Shown: positions 29,901 through 52,651 of the stretch, in pieces
Layout of the letters: each line of letters begins with the position of its first letter
Position numbering within the stretch: the stretch's first letter is position 1
Position numbers and translations under genes: made by a program
From: an uncultured Methanosarcinaceae archaeon
GTDB taxonomy: Archaea > Halobacteriota > Methanosarcinia > Methanosarcinales > Methanosarcinaceae
Direction of reading: 5' to 3'
DNA: 64,000 nt
Assembly (NCBI GenBank): GCA_963721455.1
Contig: CAVRJG010000054.1
Location: 96,001-160,000 of the forward strand
The notes under the pieces: generated by a model
The model's database searches: none
The model's input: only the letters and a program-made list of their open reading frames with translations
What the model was told of the DNA's origin: nothing

Positions 29901-29993
29901 TCTAATGGTCGGATTACTTTAGTATGCAGGCAATATATACCGACTTCTAATTTCAGCAAATACCTTGTTGACATTAAATAAGTATATTGAATT

Positions 29994-31567: not shown

Positions 31568-31574
31568 TTGAATT

Positions 31575-32690: not shown

Positions 32691-32695
32691 GTACC

Positions 32696-34027: not shown

Positions 34028-34029
34028 TT

Positions 34030-35217
34030 ATGAAATTTAAAAATTTACTGATAATATCCAACAATTTTCCAAATAGGGATGGAACATATGTTGGAGGAAA
34101 TTTCGTGAAAGAACAAGTAAAGTATCTCAAAGAATATTTTGAGAATATATACGTAGTATCTCCAGTTGCTGTCGGAATGGAACTTTTGAGGAAGACGCGT
34201 CACGAGAATTATACATTTGATAATGTTCATGTCTATTTCCCAAAATATTTTAATTGTCCCTTATTTTTTAAATATGGTCGAGATATCTGGATATATTTCG
34301 AAGAAAAAGCCATAAAGAAATTAATTGAAGATGAGAGTTTAAGATTTGATTTAATTCATGCTCACTTTACATGGCGTGCAGGAGCAGTTGCTGTCAAGTT
34401 AAAGGAAAAATATAATGTTCCTGTGGTGATTACTGAACATACTTCTCAAACATTCACCAACGCTATAAAAAAGAAAAAATCTATATTTGTTCGATCATGG
34501 AACCTATGTGATGCAATAATTCGTGTCAGGAAAGGTGACATACCACTATTCAAAAGTGTTGGAATTCCTCTGGATAAAGTGCACTATATTCCAAATGCTT
34601 ATAATGATGAAGCTTTTCTGGAGTTAGATTCAAAAAACTGCAGAAAGCAGCTAGGATTGCCTTTAGAGAAAAAAATAATATTGAATGTTGGAAATTTGTA
34701 TGGTGAGGTAAAAGGACACAAATATCTCATCGAAGCTATGAACAAAGTTATAGAGCAGAGAAAAGATGTGCTGTGTTTCATAGTAGGAGGGGGAAAATTA
34801 GAGAATATGTTAAAAAAGCAAATTAGCTCTGCAGGTTTGGGGGATTATATAAAATTTGTTGGTAGTAAGCCATATGCTGAGGTCCCTCTGTGGATGAATG
34901 CTTGCGATGTGTTTGTCTTACCGAGTTTAAGAGAAAGTTTTGGTGTTGTTCAAATAGAAGCAATGGGTTGTGGAAAACCAGTTGTTGCGACTTATAATGG
35001 GGGAAGTGAAGAAATTATAACCTCTGAAGATTATGGGTTATTATGCGAACCAGCAAATTCAAATGAATTGGCGAAGAGTATTTTGTCTGCATTAAATACA
35101 TCATGGGATACTAAAAGAATTAAAGAGTATTCTACTCGGTTTACTTGGGATACGGTCTCTAAGGAAATTATGAAGGTTTATTCTAAAATCGGCTCTGTAG
35201 AATCCTCAACAATGTAA
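34030..35217 (+). CDS. GT4 glycosyltransferase (TuaC-like)
   Basis: IHAHF, VGNL..VKG and ESFGVVQIEAMGCGKPVV. Confidence 0.9.
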   Translation: MKFKNLLIISNNFPNRDGTYVGGNFVKEQVKYLKEYFENIYVVSPVAVGMELLRKTRHENYTFDNVHVYFPKYFNCPLFFKYGRDIWIYFEEKAIKKLIEDESLRFDLIHAHFTWRAGAVAVKLKEKYNVPVVITEHTSQTFTNAIKKKKSIFVRSWNLCDAIIRVRKGDIPLFKSVGIPLDKVHYIPNAYNDEAFLELDSKNCRKQLGLPLEKKIILNVGNLYGEVKGHKYLIEAMNKVIEQRKDVLCFIVGGGKLENMLKKQISSAGLGDYIKFVGSKPYAEVPLWMNACDVFVLPSLRESFGVVQIEAMGCGKPVVATYNGGSEEIITSEDYGLLCEPANSNELAKSILSALNTSWDTKRIKEYSTRFTWDTVSKEIMKVYSKIGSVESSTM

Positions 35218-35295
35218 TTTATTTATATGACTTTTTGTTTATTTTGTAGATCTACAGTTTAAATTTCGTTTCTTTATCTTTTCAAAGGCCTAACC

Positions 35296-36585
35296 ATGTT
35301 CCATCTAAAATTCAGCAAAAATGCAAAAAATATTCAATGGTCATTCATCAGTCTTGCTACATCCTCTTTTGCACACCTGCTACTTCGAGTCGTGCTAGGT
35401 AAGGAGCTAGGACCCTCAGGACTTGGCCTGTATACTCTAGTCTTCACAATCTACTTGTTTGGTATGCAGTTTGGAACATTCGGGATTAGTGCAGCTCTGA
35501 CCAACTACATAGCCGAGTACTATGACGATCTTCCCAGGTTAAAGGAACTCGTCTCATCTGGTATTATCGGGTCCATTCTAAGCGGATCTATAATGGGGGT
35601 GTTTCTATACCTGCTTTCCAGTATTATCTCTATCCACCTTTTCCACAATCCTGAAATGGCAAACCTCTTAAGGATCACCGCATTATGTTTCCCATTTATA
35701 TCCATGCAGAAGGCTGTCATTGGAACTCTGAATGGCTTGAAGGAAATGAAACGGTATGCTATTGTTAACACTACCCAGAACTTATTGGTGATGATAGTAT
35801 CTTTTGTTCTGGTGATACTCCTGAATATGGATGTAAGGGGAGCTGTACTTGGCTTTGTTATTCCAACAATGCTGGTAGGCTTACTTTCTCTTACATTTAT
35901 AAGAAACTTTTTCATGTCACCAACAAAACTTATGATTAAGGTCTTTAAAGATATCTCAAGGTTTGGATTCTATGTTGTTCTTGCAAACTCTATCGGAATG
36001 GTCAATACACAGGTCGACAGCCTAATGATCGGTTATTTCATGAACGAGACTGAAGTGGGGTACTATGCGGTTGCGATCCTCTTTCTGCAAGCAGTCACCT
36101 TATTGCCACAGGCAGTACAGGCAGTAACAACACCCACAATTGCAGCCTACTACAGAAAAGGGGATTTTAACAATATCCAACAACTCCTCAAAAACACCAT
36201 ATTCAAGACATCGGCGGCTATATTATGTATCTCACTTATTCTTGCAATCTTCGGCAAGTTTTTGATTACCTTTTTATTTACAGGAGAGTTTCTCCCTGCT
36301 TACTTACCCATGCTTATATTATTAATTGGGTATTTCATTTATTCAGTGTATATATCTATAGGCGGCTGCCTTTCTAGCGTTGGCAAAGTTCATATTTTGT
36401 TCAAGATTGATACAATATGCGCTGGCTTGAACCTACTCTTAAACCTCATACTAATACCACGATTCGGACTCATCGGAGCTGCAAGCGCCACGTCCCTATC
36501 ATTGATTTTTACTACGTTAGTTAAGCTATCTTGTATAAGGCTATATACACAGGAAAAGCAAATCAAAATTAATGAATGCTTATGA
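35296..36585 (+). CDS. Polysaccharide flippase (Wzx/MOP superfamily)
   Basis: ~12 TM segments; LGPSGLGLY, VGYYAVA and LIPRFGLIGAA. Confidence 0.88.
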   Translation: MFHLKFSKNAKNIQWSFISLATSSFAHLLLRVVLGKELGPSGLGLYTLVFTIYLFGMQFGTFGISAALTNYIAEYYDDLPRLKELVSSGIIGSILSGSIMGVFLYLLSSIISIHLFHNPEMANLLRITALCFPFISMQKAVIGTLNGLKEMKRYAIVNTTQNLLVMIVSFVLVILLNMDVRGAVLGFVIPTMLVGLLSLTFIRNFFMSPTKLMIKVFKDISRFGFYVVLANSIGMVNTQVDSLMIGYFMNETEVGYYAVAILFLQAVTLLPQAVQAVTTPTIAAYYRKGDFNNIQQLLKNTIFKTSAAILCISLILAIFGKFLITFLFTGEFLPAYLPMLILLIGYFIYSVYISIGGCLSSVGKVHILFKIDTICAGLNLLLNLILIPRFGLIGAASATSLSLIFTTLVKLSCIRLYTQEKQIKINECL

Positions 36586-36644
36586 TATTATGAAGTAATA
36601 TTAAAGGGTAAAATTTGATTAATTGTACTGAATGTTTAATTAAA

Positions 36645-36725
36645 GAGCTTATCCTAAAACTCAAAATTTGCTCTTGAACCTTGTATTTCGAATAATCGAT
36701 CAAGTTCCTGATCATGAACATAAAT
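36645..36725. mobile_element. Partial MITE family A copy, inverted
   Basis: gagcttatcctaaaactcaaaatttgc matches the reverse complement of the right end of 523-653 and 58835-58963. Confidence 0.6.
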
Positions 36726-36771
36726 TCGGTGTTAATAGCTTAGGACTACGCGGTTGAACTTAGAAATCAAT

Positions 36772-36900
36772 GAGCTTGTTTCAAAACTACCTTCAACTTC
36801 TCTGAACCAATATTTCATAAGATCAATCAAGACTAAAGAACTAAATGGAATAAAGGTTTGCAATTAAAGGCATGGAGAGCCGGAGTTTTGAACTAGGCTC
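36772..36900. mobile_element. MITE family B (~130 bp)
   Basis: TIRs gagcttgtttcaaaac / gttttgaactaggctc; inverted homolog at 39863-39993. Confidence 0.75.
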
Positions 36901-37046
36901 TGGAATAACTCATCATAAAGTATTTGGAAGATATAGAAGTTGTTAAATCACTAAATTCCTCAAAGAACTAAAGTCGATCTATGCCAGAGCCTCATCGACG
37001 CATTGTAGTATAATGCTACTGTTGAACCATTATAGGGGAACTTCCA

Positions 37047-38883
37047 TTGAGAGATGCCATAAAGATCCTGATATTACTGCTGTTTGTAGGGGGTTTATGT
37101 ATGCTGTTCTCATACATTGCAATCCTTTATAACCCCATATCGACAGGTGATTTGTTTGTATCGCATGAAGCAGCTTACGATGTCGGTATTTCAAAACAAT
37201 CTGGAAATATTGTTGCAGAAGATTATAATGGAAAAACAATAGCATCAGGGATCTCCAATCTTGACGATGAATCTGTTATTCAAAAAGCATTTGATTCAAT
37301 TACTGATGAGGGTATAATCTATTTTGATAACAGTAAATATAGTATATCAAGACCTATAACATCAATTGGTAAAAATATTGAAATAAAAGGAAATGATACA
37401 GAGTTCAATATTAATACAGGAAGCAGTGAACCTGGATTTTCTTTTAGTGGTGAATTAATAAAAATTACCCCTGTTTTGTATGATGCAAATAAAGGAAATA
37501 ATGTAGTAAGTTTAAAAGACGCTTCAGGTACAAGTGACGGCGATTTAATAAAAATTTATAATGATATGTTGTGGTGTCCAGATGATTACCCAGCCCACAA
37601 AACTGGAGAAATGTACACAGTCGAAAGTGTGTCCCGGAAACAATTTAAAATTAAATTCTAACCTCCTAAGGGATTATACTACTAAATTAAATTCAGAAGC
37701 ACGAATTTATAGGCCTGTAACCATAAAAATTGATGGTTGTACATTTCTAGGTACGGGTTCAAAAGAAGAAGTAAGGGGTGTAAAGTTAGAGTTTTGCAAA
37801 AATTCAAAAATATCAAATTGTTATTTTGACAACAATGGGATGGCTGCAATATCTCTCTACACATGTTACGGTGTTGACGTTAGTAAAAATATAATATTGA
37901 ATTCAAATATGCCAGGTTATGGATATGGTGTTTCAATTGCTAATGCTTGCACAGATATAACTATTCAAGATAATGATATCCAAACATGTAGACACTGCAT
38001 AACATCTGGTCGTTCGGACAATTATGGGGAAAATAGGGATATATACATATCAAACAATACTTTACATAACGGTACAAACGCCGTCATAGATTCGCATCAG
38101 TCAACAATAAATTACAAAGTTACGAACAATAAAATATATTGCGGCTCACAGTGTGCATTCCTTGATGGCACTGCGTATTCCATATTTGCAAATAATGAAG
38201 TTTATGAAGCCTACGGTGAAAACAGTAATAGTGCTATTTTTAAAAGGGGTCATATTGCTGATTCCAGGAAAATAATAACTGGAAATTATGTAGAATGTGC
38301 CTCTCTAATTTCTGAAAGTAATGGAAATATAAGTGAATTAACCGTCTCAAATAACAATGTTATAGGTACGAAGACAGCTGACGTAATATTACTTGATGAC
38401 ATGAATATTAAAAAAGTTGTTATCACTAACAATTCAGTAACTTCCGGAAGATCAGGGATACACATTACTGGAGGTAACATAACAAACATTAGTATATCAG
38501 ACAACACTATTGAAAACGTACAAAGAACAGGAATCTTGATTGATACCTCTGACACCATTTTAAATCTCTCCAACAACACAATAAACAATGCAAGTAGAGA
38601 AGAAACAGGTTATAGTGCCATTGATCTGTATAATGTAAAATATGCAAGTATCCATGGTAATAAAATATCCGATAGCTACGGTCAAACAAAGTACGGAGTA
38701 TGTGAAGACCCAGACTGTGATTATAATTCCATCTATAGTAATTGGATAGAAAATATGAACTCAGGCGTCATTTATATTCAGGGAACTCACTCGACAGAAA
38801 AAAACAATGGTGTCAGAAATAGCCAATTCCCCGCTTCCTCAGCTATCGATCAAAAGGTTACCGATGGTGGGATCAGAATCTGA
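37047..38883 (+). pseudogene. Membrane-anchored right-handed beta-helix (pectate-lyase-like) protein with +1 frameshift at ~37635
   Basis: N-terminal TM and Asn-rich PbH1-like repeats; removing one C from gtgtcccgga joins the two track ORFs (ESVSGNNLKL). Confidence 0.75.
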
Positions 38884-39099
38884 TCCTTATAAGAGGTTCC
38901 TTTAGTTCTATCGATCCGTTGGAAATGTGACCGCTTGCACAATCAAGCACTATATTTAAGGAGTCGCAGAGGACACCGAAAGCAGAGTTTCAATCGCGTG
39001 GATTAAGGAAATCTGGGCAAAGGAAACCCGGTGATTTCTGAGAAACCAGCGTGTGGCCCGGAGCCTACTCTCTCCGTCAGGGTGAGATGGTCGCACGCA

Positions 39100-39830
39100 A
39101 TTTGATTACTCCAATAGTTTCTGCAAATCTATGCGAATCATATTCTGCTCCAGGTCGAATAACGATTCTTAATAGAAGACCCTCCGAAGTTACAGCTGCA
39201 TGAATCTTTATTCCGTTTCTCTTTTGAATCTATTATACTCGACACTTTCTCCCCTTTTTGTTTCTACAAAACTGCTATCTACTGCAACAATGCCAGGGGA
39301 GATCTGTCCTCGCTCCGACCTTCCGCAGATGTCTTCAAGAAAATAACATCTCTCTTGCTATCGTTTTTGGATGTTTGCTCTAAAATTTGCAATTATTATC
39401 TCAACTGAAGCTTCCTGAAATATAAGTTAGAAGCTTTCAATGAAGATACAAGATTGAAAAGTGTAGGACATTTCAAAAAAACATGTTTGAATAAGCAGGG
39501 CAATTTTCAGAAAAACGATAGCAGAAAAAATTGTGAAAATTGAACGGACATCTGCGGAAGTCAGCTCGCTGATAAGAATCATCTTTGGGATAATTTACAA
39601 TCATATCCCAAATACCTTCTTCAGATCACCGTTTTAAATGTCTCCATAAAGTTACGTAAGACCCGTATTTGTTGGGCATATCTCTCCATTGACAACCTGT
39701 GACAATAACATAAAGAATACCGTTGATAATCTGACGATCATTTACTCTCTTTCTCCCATCCTCAGGTTGGGGAGGAAGGTGTGAGCGAATATAAGCCCAT
39801 TGAGCATCACTAAGTTCTTCTAAATGTATG
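39100..39830 (-). pseudogene. Degraded IS5-family transposase interrupted by a MITE
   Basis: Minus-strand fragments GRKRVNDRQIINGILYVIVTGCQWRDMPNKYGS, AVDSSFV and GIKIHAAVTSEGL..IVI.PG.EYDS. Confidence 0.8.
39315..39564. mobile_element. MITE family C (250 bp)
   Basis: TIRs ccgaccttccgcagatgtc / gacatctgcggaagtcag; 6-bp TSD ctcgct (39309-39314, 39565-39570). Confidence 0.88.
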
Positions 39831-39862
39831 TTATTTCCCTATCTAAAGTAGAATCAAATGAT

Positions 39863-39993
39863 GAGCTGGTTTCAAAATTCCGACTATTCATGTTTTTGAC
39901 CAAAAGCAGGTGTTCAATTTAGTTCTAATGATCTTGATTATCTTCTCAGAAATATTGGTTCAGAGGGATTGGAGGTATTTTTGAAACAAGCTT
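39863..39993. mobile_element. MITE family B, inverted relative to 36772-36900
   Basis: atttagttct...aaatattggttcagag...tttgaaacaagct aligns to the reverse complement of 36772-36850; extra TIR at 40004-40017. Confidence 0.75.
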
Positions 39994-40299
39994 GAGATAT
40001 AACTTTGAAACAGGCTCAGTGAGTAAAGTTATTATAAAAGTAACTCCTTTGATGTATAAAATAATTTGATATACATAGTTTGTTTAATTGCTTATAATCA
40101 TTTACTAAAAACATAAGGGAAGGTATTGCTTCATTAGTTGGTTGATATTTCATCTTAGAATACACTTTGTTCACTTGCACCTGTTGTATAAGCTTACTTA
40201 TGTACGGGTACACAACTCGGAAAATGGAAGCAGATGCGAGTATGCGAATTGTTTTGAAAAATATCAACTTATTATTGAGGGACCACTTAAGGGGAACAT

Positions 40300-42267
40300 T
40301 TGATGTTATTTAAAGAAATAGCACCAATAATCATATTATTGACTTTAATCATTTCGGCGCCAATTGCTGTAAAAATTAAACGTTCTAACCTCTTAACTAT
40401 TGATGGGATGTTTGCAATTTTTGGAACGATATTGGGATTACTAATATCCTTCTTGAACTTGATATACAGTAATAATTACCTTATCTCATTGGGGCCTCTC
40501 CTTACAATTGCATCCCTTTTGTACTTGAGATTTAGAACTAAATTATTGGCAGACGACATAGACCTAAACCTTAACCTTAGTAATCGGGCACTAAAGATTA
40601 TTCAAATTATTTACTGGATTTGCATTTTAGTAGCATTGATAAGTTATTATCAGGCAGAGCCATACTATCGCCCTATAATATTCTTTGTCAGCGTATCAAT
40701 GGCTGTAGGATCTTTAGGGCTAGAGATTTTGTCACGTACCTATGAAGAAGATGTCCTACTCTATACTTTATTTTCTAAGATACTCATATTATCCCTTATC
40801 CTGAGATTAAGTGCTTATTTTATATCCCCCTACCCTGTTGGTATAGATCCGTGGAAACATGCCGACTTGATAAAAGACATTTCCATCTACGGAACCAGTT
40901 ATTTGCCCAAACATTCATATTACAGCAATTATCCTTTGATGCATATCTATGCATCCATTTTAAGTCTCCTGGGAAACCTGACCACAAAAGGTGCAATGTC
41001 TATCATAGGAGTGGTGCTTACAGTTAGTACTATTTTTGTATATACATTTGTCAAAAAAATTACGAATAGTGTTCAACTTGCATTATTCTCAATGTTACTT
41101 ATAAATTTTTCAGACTTCCATATTCAATGGAGCATTCAATTACTTGCTATGAGTTTTGGAATTGCCATCTATACGATGATTGTCTATCTTTTAATTGAGC
41201 AAAAGGAGAAAATAAACACTCTATTCAAAATATTCTCAATGTTAGCCATATTCGTTATCACATGGACCCACACAATATCAACATTTATTTATATTGTCTC
41301 ACTGATCTCATTATGTGCTGGATCTTATATATATGAACGTATGTATGCCACTAAAAACAACTCCGCCAGATTGAGAGCAGATCTTTTTCTTTGTATATTT
41401 TCTATACTAATATTGATCTATCACTGGTCGGATCCAAGATATCCCTTTCTTGAAGGAACAGTAAATGGACTGGGAAATTCATTTTTATCTGAGGCAAAAT
41501 TCTTAGGGCGGAGCGCGATTCCGGGTGCAGGAGACTCCTTGTCCTCGATTCTTGACATTCTTGGGTTCCTCATTTTCATTTTTTTTGGGGTTATTGGAAG
41601 CCTTCACAGCTTATCAAAAGGACATCAAACTAGAACTAAAGTGTCCTTAATCTTCATGCTTGTTGTACTATTCTCAATCTTTTTTACCTTTCCTGTAATG
41701 GGAATCAGAAATATCGTGCCATTCAGATGGCCAGCGTTTATATACACGACTTTTGTATTGTTTTCTGGGATTGGAATCTTCAAAATAACCAGCACTATCA
41801 AAGGCAGACTTTTCAAAGCTGTTTTTATCTCTATATTACTTATAATATTTTCATTTTTTATGATAACGAATTCTTTTGTAGATGTGGATTCTCCTATTTA
41901 TGGAAAAAATCTCACTCACAAAATGATCTGGACTGAATCTGAAGTCGAAATGTGTAGAAATATTAACAATTCTTATGACGATCTTATTCTAACAGATGCC
42001 ATGACAGTCGATAATATATTCCAAACATATTTATCTAGAGGTAAAGTAGCAGAGTATGCAGTTACTCCAGCAGGAACTTTAAATTGGGAGCGTATGGGAG
42101 ACAAAATGTTAATTTGGAGAAAAATCAGTTTAGATAGGCCTATAAAAGTTCAATATTCTCCTAAAATGTTACTTGGACCTTTTTTTAAATACAACCTCGA
42201 CAACAAATGTCATGTGATATATGACAGTGGATATGCGAAGGCGTACTTAGGCATTAACAGAATATAA
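40300..42267 (+). CDS. Polytopic membrane protein of glycan loci (DUF2206-like; possible polymerase or GT-C fold)
   Basis: >12 TM segments, G.DP..H and YSNYPLMH loop, soluble C-terminal domain. Confidence 0.65.
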   Translation: MMLFKEIAPIIILLTLIISAPIAVKIKRSNLLTIDGMFAIFGTILGLLISFLNLIYSNNYLISLGPLLTIASLLYLRFRTKLLADDIDLNLNLSNRALKIIQIIYWICILVALISYYQAEPYYRPIIFFVSVSMAVGSLGLEILSRTYEEDVLLYTLFSKILILSLILRLSAYFISPYPVGIDPWKHADLIKDISIYGTSYLPKHSYYSNYPLMHIYASILSLLGNLTTKGAMSIIGVVLTVSTIFVYTFVKKITNSVQLALFSMLLINFSDFHIQWSIQLLAMSFGIAIYTMIVYLLIEQKEKINTLFKIFSMLAIFVITWTHTISTFIYIVSLISLCAGSYIYERMYATKNNSARLRADLFLCIFSILILIYHWSDPRYPFLEGTVNGLGNSFLSEAKFLGRSAIPGAGDSLSSILDILGFLIFIFFGVIGSLHSLSKGHQTRTKVSLIFMLVVLFSIFFTFPVMGIRNIVPFRWPAFIYTTFVLFSGIGIFKITSTIKGRLFKAVFISILLIIFSFFMITNSFVDVDSPIYGKNLTHKMIWTESEVEMCRNINNSYDDLILTDAMTVDNIFQTYLSRGKVAEYAVTPAGTLNWERMGDKMLIWRKISLDRPIKVQYSPKMLLGPFFKYNLDNKCHVIYDSGYAKAYLGINRI

Positions 42268-42802
42268 ATTTTAACAGACATACCCTGGGAATAAGACCTT
42301 ACTTTCGGCAGATAACTTGTTTTTCCTGATGTCTTTAGTGATAGCGTTTTGTTGGAAAACACATTACCCCCATACTAAACATTATTGCAAAAATAGTTTT
42401 GTTGTTTACATGTCTCATGAGATTCGAACCATATGTTAACCGCTCAGGACTCTACATTTATTTGCATAATGTTTATAAAACGCAGTCACTTAATATATTC
42501 TAATTCTAATGTCGACCTGGCGAAAACTCAGAATCAATTTCCCTGTGTTCAGACCATATGCCCGAATCTATGTGAATTTCCCCTGTGTTAACATTCAAGA
42601 TAAATTTTATTACTTGGGGAGTGCGGAGGGTCACGAATACCCCTTTTGGGTGGGGTGGCCGCATGCAATTTGATTTTAAGTTAATCAAAGCATCCTGAAA
42701 CAAGATTCAAGACCGTAGTTACTCCACGCTTCTTCGGCATCTCAGCAGGACAGATAAGCAATTCGAAATTTTCACCTAAAAATAGACCGCAATAAAAGTG
42801 GC

Positions 42803-43105
42803 TCAGTAATTTTCAAGCACGGAGCCGACAATGTTTTTGTAATTCTCTTTCAGGGAATAGACGTTGTGATCCCCGGTGACATTTATGCTCAGGATCCCGA
42901 GCCTTGTGTTCATAAGCCCTACCATAGCTGACACTCCCCGGTAGCTTACCTCGAAATTTCCTTTATCCAGGTAATCGTAAACTTCACCGGTGGTGAACTT
43001 GTCTCCGGTCAGGAAGAGGTTGAGCACAACCTTGCGTATCCCGTTTTCATCCCTGCCGAGATACTTTATCAATCTCGCTCTTACCCTTTCTTCCGCAGTT
43101 TGCAG
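42803..43105 (-). CDS. DUF2551-like winged-helix protein
   Basis: KYLGRDENGIRKVVL...VSAMVGLMNTRLGIL; frame extends to a CTG at 43105 just after GAGGTG. Confidence 0.75.
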   Translation of the reverse strand: MQTAEERVRARLIKYLGRDENGIRKVVLNLFLTGDKFTTGEVYDYLDKGNFEVSYRGVSAMVGLMNTRLGILSINVTGDHNVYSLKENYKNIVGSVLENY

Positions 43106-43867: not shown

Positions 43868-44551
43868 GTGAACTGTATGTGCAATAAGAATTTAACAATA
43901 CCTTTCCCCATTTCTCTTGAACATATTCCTTACCTGTGGGAACGGAGTGATGTTCTTATTCTTCTTGTTGACCTGGATAATTATGATACATTTAATACGG
44001 ACTGCCTCGGCAGGATAGAAATGGAACACCTTGAGGGTTTACAGACCAGTTATTTCAAGAAAAGATACACCGTCTCCAGAACGGTTCTGAAACATATCCT
44101 GTGCAGTATCCTTAACGAACGATCCACCTCCGATATATCCACATATAAAGACGGCCATGGGAGAGTCTGCATCCATAACCACAATGAACTGTACATATGT
44201 ATATCATATACTGAAAGCATTGCAGCCTTTGCAATATCAAAGATTGAGGTCGGTATTGATATCGAGCTTGGAAGAACACTGGCTCTTAAAAATACTCTAA
44301 AATACCTGCGTGAAAAACCTTCATTCACGGACGAACCTTTAAGTAAAACCGATCTTTTAAAAACATGGACTTTGAAAGAAGCCTATTATAAGTTTTCCAA
44401 TAAAAACATGCTTCCTAATTTAAATAAAGACCTGGATCTCAGCAGTGTCAGCCATTCGAGTTATGTTTTAGACAATAAATACATCTTTTCTGTCATTACT
44501 CGCTCGGATTCCCATATTATCAATATAAATCGCCTTCAGAAGATCGACTGA
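43868..44551 (+). CDS. 4'-phosphopantetheinyl transferase (Sfp type)
   Basis: VGIDIE and WTLKEAYYK motifs. Confidence 0.85.
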   Translation: MNCMCNKNLTIPFPISLEHIPYLWERSDVLILLVDLDNYDTFNTDCLGRIEMEHLEGLQTSYFKKRYTVSRTVLKHILCSILNERSTSDISTYKDGHGRVCIHNHNELYICISYTESIAAFAISKIEVGIDIELGRTLALKNTLKYLREKPSFTDEPLSKTDLLKTWTLKEAYYKFSNKNMLPNLNKDLDLSSVSHSSYVLDNKYIFSVITRSDSHIININRLQKID

Positions 44552-44975
44552 AACTGGGACTGAATATGTTCGATAAAATCTAAGGTTTAAAATGGCGTCT
44601 GAAGTGGAAATATAAACGATTGTAATAATAAATACCCAAAAGGAACATCGACCACTTAAGTAGTTCAGGCAACTTTTGAAAGCTGTCACATTAAATCCTG
44701 TGAATATCCGGCGAAACCTCATGTATTTATTTTTCTGTATATTGCAATTTTTTGCATCCTGTAATATCTTTTCTCGACCTTATTTGTGTGCGGGTAATTA
44801 AATCGGTCACACTATTTCTTCCGTGAGGTAGCTAAATTTGTATCATCCGAGTGCACTAAATTGATTTTACTCAAAATTTTCCATTTTTGTCAGAACGTTT
44901 TTGTTAGCGGAAAAGTTTCTCAAATTATTTATATAGTTGTATTACGTATTTAGCAGTGGGGATTTCACGTTATTA

Positions 44976-45012
44976 TGGACAGTGATGTGTGTTACACACA
45001 ATCGATGGTCCA
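44976..45012 (+). promoter_or_regulatory. Imperfect palindrome/hairpin in the leader of the ACP operon
   Basis: tggac-agt-gatgtgtgt-t-acacacaatc-gat-ggtcca lies between a TTTATATA-like box (~44928) and the RBS. Confidence 0.4.
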
Positions 45013-45041
45013 CTAAACGAAAACAAAGGGGATAACAATAC

Positions 45042-45287
45042 ATGGAACAGATAAAGAATGATATAGTCGATTATTTGAAAGCTAATTCTTTTATGGACAA
45101 TAACACCAACTTGAAAGATAATGATTCTCTCACTCAGGACGGCATTATAGATTCCATTGGTCTGCTTGAACTTATGGACTATATCTGTGATAAATATTCT
45201 ATTGTGATTCCTGAAGATATGCTGACACCGGAAAATTTTGACTCGTTGCAGGGAATTACTAATATGATAACCAAACTGGCGAAGTGA
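45042..45287 (+). CDS. Acyl/aminoacyl carrier protein
   Basis: 81 aa, acidic, GIIDSIGLLEL phosphopantetheine-attachment motif, PENFDS. Confidence 0.92.
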   Translation: MEQIKNDIVDYLKANSFMDNNTNLKDNDSLTQDGIIDSIGLLELMDYICDKYSIVIPEDMLTPENFDSLQGITNMITKLAK

Positions 45288-46771
45288 ATAATATGCGAAT
45301 TGATGCGTATATCACAGAATACGCCAGAAATGCTCCTCAAAACATTGCCCTGGAAGAGGGTAAAAGTTCGATTACCTATAGCTGCCTTGATAAGGATATA
45401 AATGCCATTGCTTTACCTTTGATGGATTTTAAGCATTGCAGATTTGCAATACTTGCAGAGTCAGGCATACAGTATATAAAGATCCTCATGGCGGTTTATC
45501 GGTCAGTTAATATCGCAATCCCTCTGCCAATAGAATTTCCTAAATTCAGTCTTGAAAGAATCCTTGATGCTGCCCATATCAATAATATCATTACAACCGA
45601 TACGCAGTATTCAAGATTCGGGGACGATTTTTTTGAGCATTTTGGAACCGTAGTCGTTGTTTCCGGTGATACTTCCGTGGAGATTCTGCATAAGAAGATC
45701 GGAACCGAGTCAAATAATCCGGAACTGCGGCTGGTTCTGTACACTTCCGGCACAACAGGCACTCCAAAAGGGGTAATGTTAAGCGACAGAAACCTGGTAG
45801 CAAACGCAACGTCAATAATAGAGGTACTTGGCATAACCTCCAGAGATAAAGCAGCACTGATAATATCACCACACCACGCTTTTGGAAATTCCATAATTAA
45901 TTCCCACCTGATGGCCGGCGGCTCCATCAGAATTGGAAACATGAATTTTATAGACTCGGTTTTCAACCTTATAAGAGCAGGCGTATCCATATTCTATGGA
46001 GTGCCCAGTACTTACCGTATACTCCTCAGGTATCCAGATAGATTCAAAAAAGCTTTTACTAACGTCAGAACCGCTGCGTCCGCAGGCGGAGGTATGGATC
46101 GGGAAATTGTAAAAGATATTAGAGAGTTTACCACCAATATGGAAATTCTGCCAATGTATGGGCAGACTGAAGCCACAGCAAGGCTTGCCTACCTGCCAGC
46201 AGAAGACGTGGATAAATTCATTGACACTATAGGAAAAGCGATTCCAGGGGTCATGCTGGATGTCTTCGATTCCGAGTCCAGGTCAGTAGAACCTAATATA
46301 ACTGGCGAACTGGTTGCCAGAGGGGATAACATTCTGTTAGGTTATCTGGACGATGAAATTGCCACCGAGAAGAGGATTATAAACGGGTGGCTGCATACCG
46401 GGGATCTCGCACAGAAATTGCCAAATGGGTATATCAGACTGCTGGGACGCAAGGATGATCTTATTAAAATCGGTGATCATCGAGTGAACCCGAGAGAAAT
46501 TGAGAGAAATATAGAAGAAAATAACGAGGTCTCGAAGGTTTTTGTTGTACCTGTAGACCATGAGCTTATGGGAACCGCGATTAGCCTCCTGATCATACCT
46601 GCAGAAGGAACTAAAATCGAAAATTTGTTTGCATTCTGCCGGAAGAGCCTGCCAGGTTACCTCTGCCCAAGAGAAATACTATTCATCGATCATCTGCCCT
46701 TGAGCGAGAACGGGAAAATATCCAATCGATCTATCATAGAGGAATATAAACATGTCAAAGCTAGTATGTAA
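45284..46771 (+). CDS. ANL-superfamily adenylating enzyme (acyl/aminoacyl-ACP or CoA ligase)
   Basis: YTSGTTGTPKG, YGQTEA, TGD, GRKDD and NGKI; start overlaps the ACP stop. Confidence 0.9.
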   Translation: MNNMRIDAYITEYARNAPQNIALEEGKSSITYSCLDKDINAIALPLMDFKHCRFAILAESGIQYIKILMAVYRSVNIAIPLPIEFPKFSLERILDAAHINNIITTDTQYSRFGDDFFEHFGTVVVVSGDTSVEILHKKIGTESNNPELRLVLYTSGTTGTPKGVMLSDRNLVANATSIIEVLGITSRDKAALIISPHHAFGNSIINSHLMAGGSIRIGNMNFIDSVFNLIRAGVSIFYGVPSTYRILLRYPDRFKKAFTNVRTAASAGGGMDREIVKDIREFTTNMEILPMYGQTEATARLAYLPAEDVDKFIDTIGKAIPGVMLDVFDSESRSVEPNITGELVARGDNILLGYLDDEIATEKRIINGWLHTGDLAQKLPNGYIRLLGRKDDLIKIGDHRVNPREIERNIEENNEVSKVFVVPVDHELMGTAISLLIIPAEGTKIENLFAFCRKSLPGYLCPREILFIDHLPLSENGKISNRSIIEEYKHVKASM

Positions 46772-47792
46772 AAAGTGTGTTCTGGATTCGGACATTCCAG
46801 GTATACAGATTAATGAGGAAAGTGGTCTCTGCCATTTCTGCGAGACATATGCTCCTCTTTCTTCACAGGAAAAGAACGAGTATCTGACCAAAATTGAAGA
46901 ACTTTTTGAACAATACAGGGGAAAGGGTAAGTACGACGTTATTTATGCACTTTCCGGTGGAAAAGACTCATCATACACGCTTTACAAACTCAAAAAAGAC
47001 TATCCTTTCCTGAAGGTGCTGGCTGTCCAGTTCGATAACGGGTTCACTTCCGAAGGCGCAATAAAAAACGCAAAAAAGATGTGCAAGATCACAGGCTCCG
47101 ATTATTACCAGCTGACAATGGAAACGGAAATACTTTACGATACATTCAGAAAAGCAGCCGAATCGTACGATGCATTTCCCAAGTTTGCTAAATACCGGGC
47201 AAGTGACATCTGTAATGTCTGTATCACTATCATCAAACAGAAACTGATCGAACAGGCAATTATTCAGAAAGCACCTTTTATTGTATTTGCTTTCACAGCC
47301 GGCCAGTCCCCAAATCCCATTATTAACCTTTCGCCCAATTTTATACAGTGGTCCAGGAACCTATTTAAAAAACAGCTTGAAAAAATAGACGTCGAAGATA
47401 AAGATGAGATATTCCTCCTAAAAAGTAAGGTTATTGAAAATATGGGGGAAACTGCTCTAAGTATCCTGCATCCACTGTGTTTATGGGAGTATAGCGAAGA
47501 TAAAGTGCTGGAGGCACTTCTGGAAATCGGATGGGAACAACCTGGTATCAATGACAGTAATTCAACCAATTGTACATTGAACTCTTTTGCCTGCTATAAT
47601 CACCTGGAAAAATATGGATTCCACCCATATGCCTTTGATACAGCAGGGCTTGTCCGAAGCGGAGAAATGTCGAGGGAAGAAGGATTCGAAAAAATCAACC
47701 AGGAACTGTCACAGCCATTGATAGAAGAAGCTGCACAGAAGCTTAAATTGAATGTAACGAATTCTAAAAAAATGGCAACTGTTCGGATTTGA
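46752..47792 (+). CDS. PP-loop ATP pyrophosphatase, N-acetyl-sugar amidotransferase (WbpG/PseA)-like
   Basis: N-terminal CKKC...CHFC, SGGKDS, DNGF, CNVC and STNC. Confidence 0.75.
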   Translation: MSKLVCKKCVLDSDIPGIQINEESGLCHFCETYAPLSSQEKNEYLTKIEELFEQYRGKGKYDVIYALSGGKDSSYTLYKLKKDYPFLKVLAVQFDNGFTSEGAIKNAKKMCKITGSDYYQLTMETEILYDTFRKAAESYDAFPKFAKYRASDICNVCITIIKQKLIEQAIIQKAPFIVFAFTAGQSPNPIINLSPNFIQWSRNLFKKQLEKIDVEDKDEIFLLKSKVIENMGETALSILHPLCLWEYSEDKVLEALLEIGWEQPGINDSNSTNCTLNSFACYNHLEKYGFHPYAFDTAGLVRSGEMSREEGFEKINQELSQPLIEEAAQKLKLNVTNSKKMATVRI

Positions 47793-47828
47793 TCCTTATA
47801 TAATCAGTCTAATCATGGGGGAAATACT

Positions 47829-48821
47829 ATGCAGGTAGTGAAAGAACTGAATGTGCCGATAATGGAAGAACTGAACAGAGACATCGAAAATTTAGCCTTG
47901 AATATCAGGGGTTTTATCAAAAATCAGATTGTAGGTTTTAAGAAAAAAGGAGCAGTTTTAGGTGTTTCAGGTGGGATTGATTCAGCTGTAGCTCTTACCC
48001 TTTGCGTACAGGAGCTTGGAAAAGAAAACGTGTACGGAATCCTCCTGCCTGAAAAAGAATCGGCTCCTTCCAGTAAAACTCTGGGTGCAGAAATCTGCGA
48101 AAGCCTGGGTGTGGAATATGAGGAGGTTCCCATATCTCCAATCCTGGAATCACTTAACATTTACGAGAAGAAAGAACAGATCATAAAAAGAACCTGCCCA
48201 GAATATGATGCCAGAATACACAAAACGTCACTGGTACTGCCTGATTTCCTTGACCAGGGACTTTTGAATGTTCCTTCTATTCGGCTGATAAAAGATGGGG
48301 AGGCGGTCGCAAAGTACAGGTTGAAGGCAAATGACTATCTGGAACTGATCGGGTTGCAGGGGGTCAAGCAGCGGTCCAGAATGGTAATTCAGTATATGTA
48401 CGCTGAAAAGATGAATTACGTGGTGTGCGGGACAACCAACAAGACCGAACTGATCCTCGGGCAGTTCGTAAAATATGGGGACGGAGGTGTAGATCTCGAA
48501 CCTCTGGCTGACTGTTATAAGACCCAGATCTATGCTCTGGGTAAATACTTGCATATCAATGAAGAGATTATGACGCGCCCTCCAAGTGCTGATACATGGA
48601 GCCATTATACTACTGATGAAGAGTTTTACTGGCGCATGCCCATTCAAACAATGGATCAGTTGCTATATTCTCAGGAACATCATTTACCCTTGCAGGTAAT
48701 TGAAAAGAACACCGGGCTTTCCAGAGACAAGGTCGAAAAAGCTCAAAAACACATTAATAGAATAAGAAATACCACCGAATACGTTCGGGCTGCTCCTCCC
48801 GTTTACTATCTTAACAGATAA
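47829..48821 (+). CDS. NH3-dependent NAD+ synthetase-like protein
   Basis: GVSGGIDS, GTTNKTE, KYGDGG and PPSAD; has an insertion relative to canonical NadE. Confidence 0.8.
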   Translation: MQVVKELNVPIMEELNRDIENLALNIRGFIKNQIVGFKKKGAVLGVSGGIDSAVALTLCVQELGKENVYGILLPEKESAPSSKTLGAEICESLGVEYEEVPISPILESLNIYEKKEQIIKRTCPEYDARIHKTSLVLPDFLDQGLLNVPSIRLIKDGEAVAKYRLKANDYLELIGLQGVKQRSRMVIQYMYAEKMNYVVCGTTNKTELILGQFVKYGDGGVDLEPLADCYKTQIYALGKYLHINEEIMTRPPSADTWSHYTTDEEFYWRMPIQTMDQLLYSQEHHLPLQVIEKNTGLSRDKVEKAQKHINRIRNTTEYVRAAPPVYYLNR

Positions 48822-48999
48822 GCTGGAGAAAGATAAATGCCTGGGGGCAAAGTCGTAATAATCCCAAACCTCAGATTGGAGGAGTTACGGCTTTGCCTGT
48901 AGCAAAAAATCTGATCCTAAACTGCATAGATTACTGCGGTAGATAGGCGGCAGATGATGTAATTATAATTAACATAAATTTATTCAATGTATAAAATGT

Positions 49000-50139
49000 G
49001 TGATTATGGACACCAGGGTTTCTATTGTTCGCTGTAGCGATTATTCAAATGCAAAAGACGCGATAAGAGAGTCGCTTAACCTTATAGGCGGCCTTGAGAA
49101 GATTATAGCTCCTGGCAACCGCGTATTGCTCAAACCCAATGTACTTGCTATTCGACCGCCAGAGGATGCTGTCACAACCCATCCGGCAGTAGTAGCAGCA
49201 ATGTGTGAACTGGTTTCAGAGGCGGGCGGCATTCCAATTATAGGCGACGGCTCCGGCATTGTAAAACCCGGATCTACTACCACTTCGCAGGCATTTAAAG
49301 CATCCGGAATTGAGAATGCTGCTTCCGGTTGCGGGGCAGAACTCATTAATTTTGAGACCTCAGGTTTTGTTGAGGTTGATGTTCCAGGCGCCAGGCAGTT
49401 CTCGCGGCTTCATATCTCAAGAGCAGTACTTGAGGCAGATGTAATAATTTCGCTTCCAAAGCTCAAGACCCATGAACTCACGCTATATACAGGTGCTGTC
49501 AAAAATTTCTTTGGCACCGTGCCTCAGAAAAACCGAAAACAAGCTCACTTCCTGGAAGATCGTGGCCGTTTCGGAGAAGCAGTTGTTGATATATATTCTG
49601 TCGTCAAACCTCAGCTCGCTGTTATGGACGGTGTGGTCGGAATGGAAGGGAATGGCCCGGCCAACGGTACACCTGTTTTTGCAGGCGTGATTATGGCAAG
49701 TTATGACTGCGTAGCCCTGGATATCGTGGCCTCTGAGCTCATAGGAATTGATCCTTTGAAGGTTCCTACAAATAAAGCTGCACTCTCAAGGGGGTTCGGA
49801 ACCGAACATCCTGAGATTACAGGGGTGCCTCTGGACGAGGTAAAGGTCAGATTCAAAAGGCCAGAAGGTGGAATCACTGCCTTCGTACCGTCTTTTCTTA
49901 TGAGGGTCCTTCGAAGGCAGTTAACTGTAAAACCCGTTATCAACACCTCAAGCTGTGCGCTTTGCAAAGCATGTGTTTTGAACTGTTCGGCACATGCCAT
50001 TGAAGAAGCAGGTAGTGCACTCAAAATCAACGAGGAAAAATGCATCCAGTGTTATTGTTGCCGAGAACTTTGCCCTAACGATGCTGTAGAAATTAAAAAA
50101 TCACTGCTTCTAAAGCTTATAACCAGAAGTAAAAGCTAA
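49000..50139 (+). CDS. DUF362 protein with C-terminal 2x[4Fe-4S] domain
   Basis: VLLKPN, TTHP, PKLKTH, TGAVKN..G, DG..GMEGNGP; CALCKAC and CIQCYCCRELCP. Confidence 0.88.
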   Translation: MIMDTRVSIVRCSDYSNAKDAIRESLNLIGGLEKIIAPGNRVLLKPNVLAIRPPEDAVTTHPAVVAAMCELVSEAGGIPIIGDGSGIVKPGSTTTSQAFKASGIENAASGCGAELINFETSGFVEVDVPGARQFSRLHISRAVLEADVIISLPKLKTHELTLYTGAVKNFFGTVPQKNRKQAHFLEDRGRFGEAVVDIYSVVKPQLAVMDGVVGMEGNGPANGTPVFAGVIMASYDCVALDIVASELIGIDPLKVPTNKAALSRGFGTEHPEITGVPLDEVKVRFKRPEGGITAFVPSFLMRVLRRQLTVKPVINTSSCALCKACVLNCSAHAIEEAGSALKINEEKCIQCYCCRELCPNDAVEIKKSLLLKLITRSKS

Positions 50140-50309
50140 CAGAAGAGTTGTCTGGAAGTTCGTTTATTCAGCATGCTGGAAATCAGTGTATTCAGCATAT
50201 TATCAATGTCAAAATTAATTAAGCACGAACTGTAGAAATTTATTTATTAGTTAAAGCACAATTAAAAAGTAGTACAAAATAATTTAACAGTAAAATGGGG
50301 GGTATTAGC

Positions 50310-50843
50310 ATGACTACTGTAGTGTCTACCAGAGATCAAGTAACCTTTCGTGAAGTTGCGGACCATTACCACAGTAATATATTTCTGTTTGGCATGAAAT
50401 ATTTAAAAAACTGGATTCTGGAACGGCTTGCTTCAAGCGCTCCTGTCCCGTCCTGGAGAGCTAAATTACACAGGATGCGGGGTGTAAATCTCGGAAAGAA
50501 TGTATATGTTGGCTATGACGTAATTTTTGATCGGATTCACCCTGAATTAATTACAGTAGGGGATTATGCTGAAATCGGCGATCGGTGCATACTATCTGCA
50601 CATTCGAGAGGGAGTTTGACTACAAGACAGGCATATCCGAGAACTACGGATCCCATAAAAATCGGACGCGGAGCTCTTGTGAATTCGGGATGTATAATCA
50701 CACAGGGTGTCGAAATCGGGGAAAACTCAATAATAGGCATCGGATCCGTAGTTACTCGCGATATCTCTCCAAATAGTCTTGCTCTGGGCTACCCTGCCAG
50801 AGTTGTTAAAAAGCTTGAAGGTGTAGGCGAGCTTCAAACCTGA
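50310..50843 (+). CDS. Hexapeptide-repeat O/N-acyltransferase
   Basis: Left-handed beta-helix repeats, GSVVTRD and GYPARVVK. Confidence 0.85.
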   Translation: MTTVVSTRDQVTFREVADHYHSNIFLFGMKYLKNWILERLASSAPVPSWRAKLHRMRGVNLGKNVYVGYDVIFDRIHPELITVGDYAEIGDRCILSAHSRGSLTTRQAYPRTTDPIKIGRGALVNSGCIITQGVEIGENSIIGIGSVVTRDISPNSLALGYPARVVKKLEGVGELQT

Positions 50844-50860
50844 TTTTAACACCTTCATGA

Positions 50861-51445
50861 TTATTTTTCGGATTTATATTTGAATTCAAAGCCAAATTGA
50901 TTCAAGGCAAACAATGCCATCATTATTATACAGCAAATAAAAAAAACCGATACAAAAGATACTATCAGGTAGTGAAATAGCCCGGTTTCCTGAAAACTTA
51001 TATCCATCATTGAAAATACACTGATATCTTTATCGTATAATGGATAAAGGTACTCGCAGCCGCCTTCACTAATATCATCCAGCAATAGGTGTGAAAGGAG
51101 AGCAGCCTCTGCAAAAAGGCCAAGGTATATTGCCCTGCCAGGCTCCCTGAATATAGCATATCCTGTAATTGTCCCGAACAGGATTGCAGGAAAACTGAAT
51201 AGAATAGAATGTGTTGGAACCGGGCCAATAGAGCAATGTTCCATAGTACCGTTTACGAATAAATTGTAAACAATCATGATATCCGGGAATAAAGCACATA
51301 AACTGCCTACGGACAGCAGCAATAGTAAAGGCATTGAACTCTTGAAAGAGAGTTCCCTCCGAAAAAGTAATCTGAGAGCAGCATAGACTGCTACTGCGTT
51401 GATACACAACACAAAGAATAATACATGTACAACCGGATAGGGCAT
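50861..51445 (-). CDS. Membrane-bound metal-dependent hydrolase (YdjM/DUF457-like)
   Basis: N-terminal H, FPD, THS and SHLLLD motifs; TM segments. Confidence 0.8.
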   Translation of the reverse strand: MPYPVVHVLFFVLCINAVAVYAALRLLFRRELSFKSSMPLLLLLSVGSLCALFPDIMIVYNLFVNGTMEHCSIGPVPTHSILFSFPAILFGTITGYAIFREPGRAIYLGLFAEAALLSHLLLDDISEGGCEYLYPLYDKDISVFSMMDISFQETGLFHYLIVSFVSVFFICCIIMMALFALNQFGFEFKYKSEK

Positions 51446-51578: not shown

Positions 51579-52578
51579 CTGACCTTACACAGATGTCTTC
51601 AAAAAATAACCTTTTTCATGCTATCGTTTTCAGGTAATAACCTAAAAATCTGAAATCATTATCTCGATTCTTACCCAAAAAAACAGAAGTGAAAACTCGT
51701 TAGTTGAATCACAAAGTCTAAAGATGTGAGAGATTTAAGAGATACAGATTACAATAATTCAATATGATTTTGACAAAAAAGATGTCATTAAAAATTGTGA
51801 AAATTGAAAAGACCTGTCGGGTAAGTAGGGAGGATTACTCCTCCTTTCTCCCCTAGGAACCGTACTTGAAAGTTTCCCTTCATACGGCTCGAGTGTTTTC
51901 AAACCCTTTCTGTATCAGGCACCAGTTATTTGCATAACTGATTTTGTGTTCCGGATAACAGCCCACTAACATAATTGTCTGTAAGCCTCTCACCTATTGG
52001 TGTCGTTGAGTATCTTACATTTGTAGGTTTGTTTCCATTCACACAAGAAAACACCATCAGTAAGTCTGCATCCTTTCGGATTGAGGCAAAGTTTGAACCT
52101 CTATCCAATCCATTACAGATTGGCATTCGCTTTTTACTGAATCCTCTACCCTCAATGCCATCGTTATCCCTCGCGGGAGTCCTACCCATAATGGGAGCAT
52201 TTAGGGCTTACCAAGTTCCATACTACGAATAATGTGAATACCTTAGAAGCCATCTATAAACCGAGAATCATTTGTCCATTTGCCATAATGTCCGCAGACC
52301 CATTACAGCCTGATTCTGTACCTTTTGGTTAAGCGTATCAGCCTGCTTTCGCTTATTCCACTTCACGATTCTTACGATGGTTCACTTTATGTTCTTCATA
52401 GTATTCGTATCCTAACCGATTACCAAAGTCAGGTTCCTTGATTTCTCGATAGTGTCCTGTGAGCTTCACACACAAATGTTACCATTTATGCATGTCACAG
52501 TAGGATTACCTCAAATGGAAGAGGTAGCGAATGGTGCAATTCATAGTATAGCTTCTTGTCGCACCTGCGGAAAGTGGG
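51579..52578. mobile_element. MITE family C (251 bp once the intron is removed), carrying a group II intron in its right TIR
   Basis: Left TIR ctgaccttacacagatgtc; split right TIR gacct|ctgcggaaagtggg; 6-bp TSD attaaa (51573-51578, 52579-52584); body homologous to 39315-39564. Confidence 0.88.
51816..52564 (-). ncRNA. ORF-less group II intron ribozyme (749 nt)
   Basis: Minus strand starts GTGCG and ends ...CCCGAC; domain V GAGCCGTATGAAGGGAAACTTTCAAGTACGGTTC followed by a domain VI hairpin; EBS1 CTGCGGA (52291-52297) and EBS2 AAGTGG (52358-52363) complementary to the 5' exon. Confidence 0.95.
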
Positions 52579-52651
52579 ATTAAACTTCAAATGTGCCTGA
52601 TAAATTCTGGAAAGGATTTTCCCTGCCAGTTTATTTACTTCGGACACTGCC

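Follow-up and report, generated by a model that had tools for sequence, protein, structure and literature searches.

Archaea are, to our knowledge, generally held not to use carrier-protein (phosphopantetheine) chemistry, and phylogenomic work by Lombard in 2012 reportedly noted rare archaeal homologues of acyl carrier protein (ACP). In DltA/DltC D-alanylation and in the Vibrio cholerae O1 WbeK/WbeL tetronate route a stand-alone ligase and a carrier deliver a small group to a surface polymer, and the sulfur insertases TtuA, NcsA and LarE act on tRNA or on a free cofactor precursor and are not known to act on a carrier. A related pSymB operon of Sinorhizobium, asnB-SMb20651 (ACP)-SMb20650 (ligase)-nadE, was reportedly the subject of a 2009 study by Ramos-Vega. 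CtaC of the closthioamide pathway is described, in the accessible part of its report, as a [4Fe-4S] enzyme that thioamidates only carrier-bound substrates, in which mutation of D77 or S78 abolished activity and mutation of C154, C157 or C284 diminished it; the approximately 100 CtaC homologues in Table S5 of that report are all bacterial (PMC6772006). Here we describe a gene cassette at positions 43868 to 51445 of a 64,000-nucleotide stretch (the window) of an uncultured Methanosarcinaceae archaeon (GenBank assembly GCA_963721455.1, contig CAVRJG010000054.1, positions 96,001 to 160,000). It is genuine and conserved, encodes a carrier-protein pathway and represents a new archaeal form of a bacterial cassette that is known yet uncharacterised; one of its enzymes probably belongs with CtaC.

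All eight open reading frames (ORFs) claimed in an earlier reading of these letters (the original prediction) were confirmed at their coordinates in the ORF list of the window:

43868..44551, + strand: Sfp-type 4'-phosphopantetheinyl transferase (PPTase), 490 bp 5' of the ACP gene, assigned by motifs and a borderline PF01648 match
45042..45287, + strand: acyl/peptidyl carrier protein (ACP) of the SMb20651 type, with GIIDSIG and Ser38
45284..46771, + strand: ANL adenylating ligase (PF00501); an ATG at 45293 is possibly the true start
46752..47792, + strand: probable CtaC-type PP-loop (AANH) enzyme, Cys-rich, 346 aa, with SGGKDS and Cys motifs
47829..48821, + strand: NadE paralogue of the PRK00876 subfamily (NF002048)
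49000..50139, + strand: accessory protein with DUF362 and 2x[4Fe-4S] (Fer4), by domain search
50295..50843, + strand: hexapeptide (left-handed beta-helix) acyltransferase, by domain and NCBIfam search
50861..51445, - strand: convergent YdjM-family membrane protein, by domain search, with the weakest link to the cassette

We consider it very likely that these genes encode a dedicated thiotemplated (carrier-protein) pathway. Synteny, the single ACP/PPTase pair and gene fusions bear out the earlier proposal of a thiotemplated route as opposed to fatty-acid synthesis. The overlapping trio described there is likewise present, ACP and ligase genes sharing 4 nt (from the GTG start) and ligase and PP-loop genes 20 nt, and its statement that ketosynthase (KS), condensation and thioesterase (TE) genes are absent holds for the 25 proteins scanned between 25.6 and 58.5 kb of the window. 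A genome-wide domain search gave no condensation domain; PF00109 had two weak matches elsewhere in the genome, and no KS accompanies the ACP among the window proteins scanned. The closest named homologues are Methanosarcina proteins, which assigns the window to a genome of that genus, and this genome is 98.5% complete.

The PPTase carries the motifs GIDIE and WTLKEA (PF01648, 24-25 bits), and GxDxE and WTxKE were both present in 30 of 44 orthologous ORFs under a strict regular expression, the remainder being variants or fragments. In genus g22 the PPTase is split into two ORFs at L058:5685-6368 and L072:5658-6341, the other cassette genes there being intact. The ACP has no Pfam match, and its NCBIfam ACP matches all lie below cut-off; residues D37, S38 and P63 are invariant across 60 homologues, identity to the Sinorhizobium medicae ACP is 40% over 60 aa, and the nearest solved structures are type II peptidyl carrier proteins (PCPs) such as PigG and PltL, which are closer than AcpP. 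Since PF00550 misses the cassette ACP itself, the genome was searched for carriers with a custom profile, which found this single ACP; a genome-wide search also found a single PPTase and, as the sole ACP and sole PPTase of a nearly complete genome, the two look like a dedicated pair.

The cassette is close to genus-wide. Of 36 genomes of the same genus, 34 have an orthologue of the PP-loop enzyme (76-89% identity; whole in 33, split in 1), several of them in duplicate, and no match better than E 3e-6 was obtained in 24 genomes from other families of the order. The NadE-like protein, used as a marker at E < 1e-140, was found in 66 of 150 family genomes (by genus 32/34, 12/13, 5/6, 10/11, 6/34 and 1/3, with 0/49 in ten other genera), and in a sample of the phylum the PP-loop profile matched 29/55 family genomes versus 3/345 others. 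Titled records with the PP-loop protein come from Methanosarcina, Methanolobus, Methanomethylovorans, Methanococcoides-labelled and a few Methanomicrobiales genomes; one protein, P0042, is named M. acetivorans by NCBI. Among 69 archaeal stretches with the PP-loop gene, a set that includes about six duplicates and several stretches ending at contig ends, the ligase is present in 65, NadE-like protein in 64, ACP in 63, hexapeptide protein in 49, DUF362 protein in 42, PPTase in 42, YdjM in 30 and a FabG-like short-chain dehydrogenase/reductase (SDR), after NadE, in 26. As kin are not independent, these numbers show how the cassette is distributed and have no force as statistics. The order ACP-ligase-PP-loop-NadE is kept throughout the family, over six genera at 63-93% identity, and PPTase-ACP-ligase-PP-loop-NadE-like forms a conserved unit.

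Second copies of the cassette, lacking the PPTase, occur in several genomes; those in L031, L033, L034, L036, L074 and L076 lie directly 3' of indolepyruvate-oxidoreductase-like iorAB, a neighbourhood that we counted as one inherited event and not as evidence, and in L033, L034 and L076 glycosyltransferase and flippase genes come next. One such copy (L031, in G030, the genome of a relative) is transcribed: stranded raw reads gave a sense depth of 14-160 in every bin from ACP to hexapeptide gene, with a strand switch to opposite-strand RNA at YdjM, and two shallow single-end runs agree in strand, although such short reads do not prove a single transcript. In a quick unrooted tree the methanogen PP-loop proteins form one group among bacterial cassette proteins (SH-aLRT 99), as do the methanogen ligases among bacterial cassette ligases (FastTree), and acquisition of the cassette from bacteria is plausible on this evidence.

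The PP-loop enzyme has an N-terminal CxxC...CxxC, the nucleotide-binding loop motif SGGKDS (S68-G-G-K-D72-S73), C154xxC157 and C274. The three last-named cysteines are invariant in 105 aligned homologues and in 65/65 archaeal ORFs, which all carry SGGKDS too, and are absent from 4/4 annotated WbuX proteins, from the Methanosarcina paralogue L188, which passes the cut-off of the WbuX-type model TIGR03573, and from the WbuX-type structure 8WEX. Comparison with CtaC was made through a metagenome CtaC orthologue and not the authentic protein, from a motif scan that yielded 15 metagenome stretches, 2 of which encode such an orthologue. Over its full length this orthologue aligned with the profile of the PP-loop family (hhalign 99.95%, E 7e-38), and all five residues line up, D72, C154, C157 and C274 corresponding to CtaC D77, C154, C157 and C284. 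We therefore favour, with some confidence, assignment of the PP-loop enzyme as a CtaC-type sulfur insertase with a predicted [4Fe-4S] cluster. One of the two metagenome loci (L163:3389-11105) holds a closthioamide-like set of two carriers, ligase, aminotransferase, CtaC orthologue and ATP-grasp; the other, L171, encodes a near-identical CtaC orthologue. Some Methanosarcina also encode a second three-Cys PP-loop paralogue (L182:5185-6324, L183-L186; about 26% identity, TIGR03573 185 bits, below cut-off), in most cases immediately 3' of genes for a URO-D/MtaA-type methyltransferase-family protein and a NACHT-HEAT protein; none of the listed ORFs of at least 90 aa encodes a carrier.

Gene fusions are, in our view, the strongest evidence that the PP-loop enzyme would act on tethered substrates. 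Of 16 long PP-loop homologues scanned, two (P0126, P0132) are fused to an ANL ligase of the same type, eight are non-ribosomal peptide synthetase (NRPS) proteins with the PP-loop domain between adenylation (A) core and PCP, one further NRPS protein (P0269) has it after TE, two more distant homologues are fused to NifU-C and one to PilZ; another homologue, P0172, starts with an ACP of the same DS type. Outside Methanosarcinaceae, ACP accompanies the PP-loop gene in 53 and ligase in 54 of 62 loci (3 of which are shared with the 69 archaeal stretches). The arrangement in P0214, P0217, P0236, P0244-P0247, P0258 and P0259 is C-A-[PP-loop]-Asub-PCP, or after TE as in P0269, and one of the interrupted proteins is from Rhodohalobacter sulfatireducens; these NRPS proteins are candidate sulfur-inserting interrupted A domains, and one targeted full-text search, in which few subscription papers were covered, gave no account of adenylation domains that contain a CtaC-like domain. 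In 59 bacterial loci, the surroundings of the PP-loop gene (within 4.5 kb) held AsnB without NadE-like protein in 32 cases, NadE-like protein without AsnB in 11, the two together in 1 and neither of them in 15 (9 short loci), a partner pattern that may be read as one amide-forming plus one sulfur-inserting enzyme. Among other bacterial loci, a Bacillus thuringiensis plasmid (L158:13834-28014) carries a 35%-identical CtaC-type gene with three carriers, two ligases, two ketosynthase-family genes, FabZ, FabG, AsnB, PPTase and a radical SAM gene, and L107, L112, L113 and L115 have a SAM-dependent methyltransferase between ligase and CtaC-type gene, which could S- or N-methylate the product.

The ligase probably loads a carboxylic acid onto the ACP. 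Its A4 motif reads SPHHAFG (HHAFG), SPHHA[FY]G being found in 10/10 Methanosarcinaceae ligases aligned, and lacks the Asp that we take to bind the alpha-amino group; it clusters with FYxYG-type cassette ligases and the fusion P0126, away from the two other ANL ligases of the genome (FastTree). A ligase of this clade, without that Asp, is likelier to activate a non-amino acid than an amino acid in DltA style, and the earlier suggestion of DltA-like amino-acid activation is thus disfavoured; the DltA model itself gave 136 against a cut-off of 560. The best NCBIfam models are long-chain acyl-CoA ligases, each below cut-off, and a search of the PDB gave no close relative informative on substrate.

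The NadE-like protein passes the NAD(+) synthase model NF002048 (486 bits versus a cut-off of 313), has an insertion of about 57 aa, and has a replacement of the C-terminal HKR of the canonical enzyme, presumably the element that binds nicotinic acid adenine dinucleotide; it is 36% identical to the NadE of the S. medicae cassette. As a canonical NadE is encoded elsewhere in the genome (C56:107209), the cassette protein is a paralogue, predicted to be the amide-forming enzyme of the cassette. AsnB was found in 0/69 archaeal cassette stretches, and an unlinked AsnB lies on contig C42 of the genome. The DUF362 protein has a 60% paralogue elsewhere in the genome, and that it supplies electrons, sulfur or a cluster is only a guess; YdjM has two paralogues there at 66-68%. 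An orthologue of the hexapeptide protein was found in 52 family genomes, 51 of them with the NadE-like marker, and in 1/84 marker-negative genomes, and this near-confinement makes it the natural candidate for off-loading the acyl group of the ACP. LpxA/LpxD-type enzymes use acyl-ACP.

On this basis we propose a pathway whose chemical steps are all predicted, from genes, linkage, motifs, fusions, distribution and the transcribed copy of one relative. The PPTase would, as its family does, convert the ACP to the holo form; the ligase would adenylate a small carboxylic acid other than an amino acid (a di- or oxo-acid, perhaps) and load it on the phosphopantetheine of Ser38; the NadE paralogue would use ATP and ammonia to amidate a free carboxylate on the tethered acid; and the CtaC-type enzyme, by analogy with CtaC, would adenylate the amide oxygen and swap in sulfide held on the three-Cys [4Fe-4S] cluster to give a thioamide, a FabG-like reductase also acting in other genera. 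Finally, and this is the weakest step, the hexapeptide transferase would move the unit from ACP to an acceptor, likeliest an amino or hydroxyl group on a sugar that is linked to a nucleotide or lipid and destined for the cell surface. That the cassette is a stand-alone thiotemplated pathway, kin to the bacterial cassette, making a sulfur-containing acyl unit passed to a sugar acceptor is a proposal that we advance tentatively, at somewhat under even chances. The most specific version, in which Methanosarcina and related genera use phosphopantetheine to place a thioamide acyl group on a cell-surface sugar and the same enzyme family also serves as a sulfur-inserting domain inside NRPS adenylation domains, is unlikely to be right in every part.

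Several observations weigh against this proposal. To the PP-loop enzyme, the CtaC orthologue (25.6% identity, 68.9 bits) is pairwise no closer than one WbuX protein (24.9%, 69.3 bits), so that the profile score (190 bits for the CtaC orthologue versus 104-149 for WbuX) and the Cys motif are the sole separators; the alignment-based predicted fold (pLDDT 95.6; a single-sequence fold at pLDDT 35 was discarded) has as its best structural match WbuX-type 8WEX (Z 23.6, rmsd 3.7, 320 residues), which explains the WbpG/PseA label of the original prediction; in a quick unrooted tree, with no outgroup, the three-Cys group has SH-aLRT 91 and the CtaC orthologue sits on a long branch; and the three cysteines might instead coordinate zinc or a structural cluster. 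The Sinorhizobium operon has AsnB and NadE-like protein together with no CtaC-type gene, so the two are not simply interchangeable and the scheme is incomplete. The hexapeptide orthologue is absent from 15/66 cassette genomes. On the acceptor side, a glycan gene was found in only 22/69 archaeal stretches (with a limited query set), the main Methanosarcina locus usually having none, and methanochondroitin is described as an unsulfated GlcA/GalNAc polymer with no such substituent, whose genes a 2025 review lists as unidentified (PMC12369344). Of the other structural comparisons, TtuA/NcsA/LarE-type structures (6SCY, 5B4E, 8CNZ) gave weaker, partial matches to the PP-loop enzyme (Z about 11), the ESM Atlas returned generic QueC/PP-loop cluster names only, and a predicted complex with the ACP scored 0.07 and was not used either way.

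Whether a glycan is the acceptor of the acyl unit we judge to be evenly balanced. The cassette was said to lie next to a glycan island, and it does adjoin one here, with IS66, a CapK-like ligase, a GT4 glycosyltransferase, a flippase, a beta-helix protein and a membrane protein upstream in the 13.5 kb between uppS and DUF2551; the island is, however, a local 13.5-kb insertion, the uppS-DUF2551 gap being 0.4-1.7 kb in 16/16 relative stretches with both genes (22 examined, 6 without uppS), and it does not serve as evidence for a glycan role. The glycan link consequently rests mainly on bacterial relatives: a glycan or exopolysaccharide (EPS) gene occurs in 31 of 44 bacterial loci of at least 12 kb and exosortase in 9 of 59, both lower bounds, 13 family labels having been checked by Pfam and two (Wzz, tyrosine kinase) having no match at E 1e-12. 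In other archaeal genera the cassette recurs beside UDP-sugar dehydrogenase, epimerase, Gfo/Idh or flippase genes. Within the island itself (29326-42803 of the window), the IS66 transposase is broken and carries a PYLIS_6 element at 30360-30459, the CapK-like ligase matches no family over its first 93 residues, and the beta-helix gene falls into two ORFs, split at about 37600. A connection to archaeosortase C and PEF-CTERM was considered and rejected: the distribution of ArtC (10/34 genomes of genus g1, 0/11 of g28, 26/34 of g16) does not follow that of the cassette, and ArtC was not found in this genome.

The best-surviving alternative, which we regard as possible if clearly less probable than the transfer to sugar, keeps the same carrier-bound amide/thioamide chemistry, which would here yield a small free metabolite, a precursor of a cofactor or a decoration on lipids. 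The main locus lies among housekeeping genes in most Methanosarcina, the cassette is kept throughout nearly all of the genus (34/36 genomes) and duplicated in several, relatives occur in NRPS/PKS-type clusters, and the second-best NCBIfam match of the hexapeptide protein is a prenylglyceryl O-acetyltransferase model (61.5 bits against a cut-off of 300). In addition, the accessible part of a preprint reports that a putative operon MA1027-MA1029 (ACP and acyl-CoA ligase), which from its description we infer to be this cassette, was down-regulated in an rnf mutant, as were ubiA and thiC (bioRxiv 10.1101/2022.07.20.500911). Set against a free product are the finding that neither an exporter nor a release enzyme consistently accompanies the cassette across the 69 archaeal stretches, the frequency of EPS/exosortase loci among its nearest bacterial counterparts, and the repeated sugar-gene neighbours in other genera. 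One specific product of this kind, methanophenazine, is not favoured because the cassette is absent from 10/16 genera sampled in the family and has no orthologue in 24 other-family genomes, as judged against what we take to be the distribution of methanophenazine.

Less probable, indeed unlikely, is the chemistry of the original prediction, in which the PP-loop enzyme inserts nitrogen from free ammonia (an amidine or second amide, WbuX-like) on an ACP-bound unit or nucleotide sugar, the cysteines being structural. The nearest fold and the equal pairwise scores agree with it, TIGR03573 is the best NCBIfam match, and in bacteria AsnB could supply the ammonia. The TIGR03573 score (125.5 bits) nevertheless falls below the cut-off of 203.2, and the CtaC orthologue obtains the same sub-threshold value (about 125 bits), compared with 297.6 bits for the true member L188; HisH/HisF genes lie beside the PP-loop gene in 0/102 loci versus 2/4 control WbuX loci, the latter indicating that the feature is not universal; and the invariant cysteines stand at CtaC catalytic positions. 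An enzyme that fails this cut-off, has no HisH/HisF and carries the CtaC/TtuA three-Cys site is poorly described as a WbpG/PseA-type nucleotide-sugar amidotransferase, and the CtaC-type assignment is preferred.

Very improbable is a system that activates or elongates fatty acids on the ACP in order to acylate lipids or proteins. It could draw on the sub-threshold long-chain acyl-CoA ligase models, on the FabG-like SDR of 26/69 stretches and on acylation of SMb20651 in E. coli upon SMb20650 co-expression, but the same source, as far as accessible, reports that SMb20650 failed to complement fadD mutants (PMC7232532), and the cassette has no KS, an ACP nearer to type II PCPs than to AcpP, and two PP-loop enzymes for which fatty-acid synthesis has no use. 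That the genes, a second NAD synthetase among them, came together by chance or are decaying might be suggested by the NAD(+) synthase match and a few broken copies (L035, L036, L082, L094), but is scarcely credible given the fixed gene order over six genera, the continuous sense transcription in L031 and the canonical NadE elsewhere.

Elsewhere in the window, an ORF-less group II intron-like element of about 765 nt (51816-52581, - strand; Rfam RF00029, RF02012) lies between ydjM and a radical SAM gene, and at least 14 more copies occur in the genome, several of them 99-100% identical, which suggests recent mobility. Tandem, near-identical AglB/STT3 oligosaccharyltransferase genes (3108-5621 and 6149-8671) lie about 35 kb upstream of the cassette. 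A sigma-70 promoter and terminator scan, a model unsuited to archaea, performed at chance level.

A full-text literature search, covering few subscription papers, returned no characterisation of the cassette in archaea, and the accessible parts of PMC9542644, PMC12777485, PMC9385802, PMC4350412 and bioRxiv 10.64898/2025.12.21.693542 contain nothing on it. Genes of this family are annotated 'NAD synthase', 'long-chain acyl-CoA ligase' and 'TilS/QueC'. Methanosarcina is among the major methane producers and includes a model species that is amenable to genetics, and a genus-wide carrier pathway there may bear on its surface glycans. With an enzyme resembling a thioamide maker in a nearly genus-wide set, methanogens may make an undescribed sulfur-bearing compound or surface-sugar decoration: if the CtaC assignment is true, an undescribed thio-compound would follow, and if the surface-sugar thioamide reading is true, a thioamidated carbohydrate substituent and a second, YcaO-independent thioamide route in methanogens. 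The product would be the first for a cassette family widespread in anaerobic bacterial EPS loci.

Set beside the described systems, the cassette shares with CtaC/CtaE/CtaI of Ruminiclostridium cellulolyticum, to the extent that the accessible text describes them, an AANH enzyme with SGGKDS and with a three-Cys site whose positions align (PMC6772006), its placement with a carrier and an ANL ligase, and an NRPS-independent thiotemplated logic (PMC6772006, PMC7183216). It differs in its identity of about 26% (to the CtaC orthologue), in lacking ATP-grasp, decarboxylase and papain-like transacylase, and in having the NadE paralogue, DUF362 protein and hexapeptide transferase. Judged from sequence comparison, the cassette core is a variant of the Sinorhizobium asnB-ACP-ligase-nadE operon, a kinship that the original prediction missed: ACP type (40%), ligase family (31%), NadE-like subfamily (36%) and, in the S. 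medicae copy, the order ACP-ligase...NadE are alike, whereas the methanogen cassette has no AsnB, has the CtaC-type enzyme (L229 having no homologue beyond the PP-loop motif), its own PPTase and an archaeal host, and a ligase without the Asp of the SFDYG type. With WbuX/WbpG/PseA (TIGR03573; 8WEX) the PP-loop enzyme shares overall fold and N-terminal Cys motif, and differs in its sub-threshold score, the absence of HisH/HisF and three extra invariant cysteines; with TtuA/NcsA/LarE it shares a PP-loop core with CxxC, and the same O-to-S chemistry is proposed. In contrast to the Dlt and Wbe systems, no DltB/DltD or MBOAT partner is conserved with the methanogen cassette and its ligase is not of the amino-acid type; the methanogen cassette would instead tailor its small acid on the carrier by means of two PP-loop enzymes.

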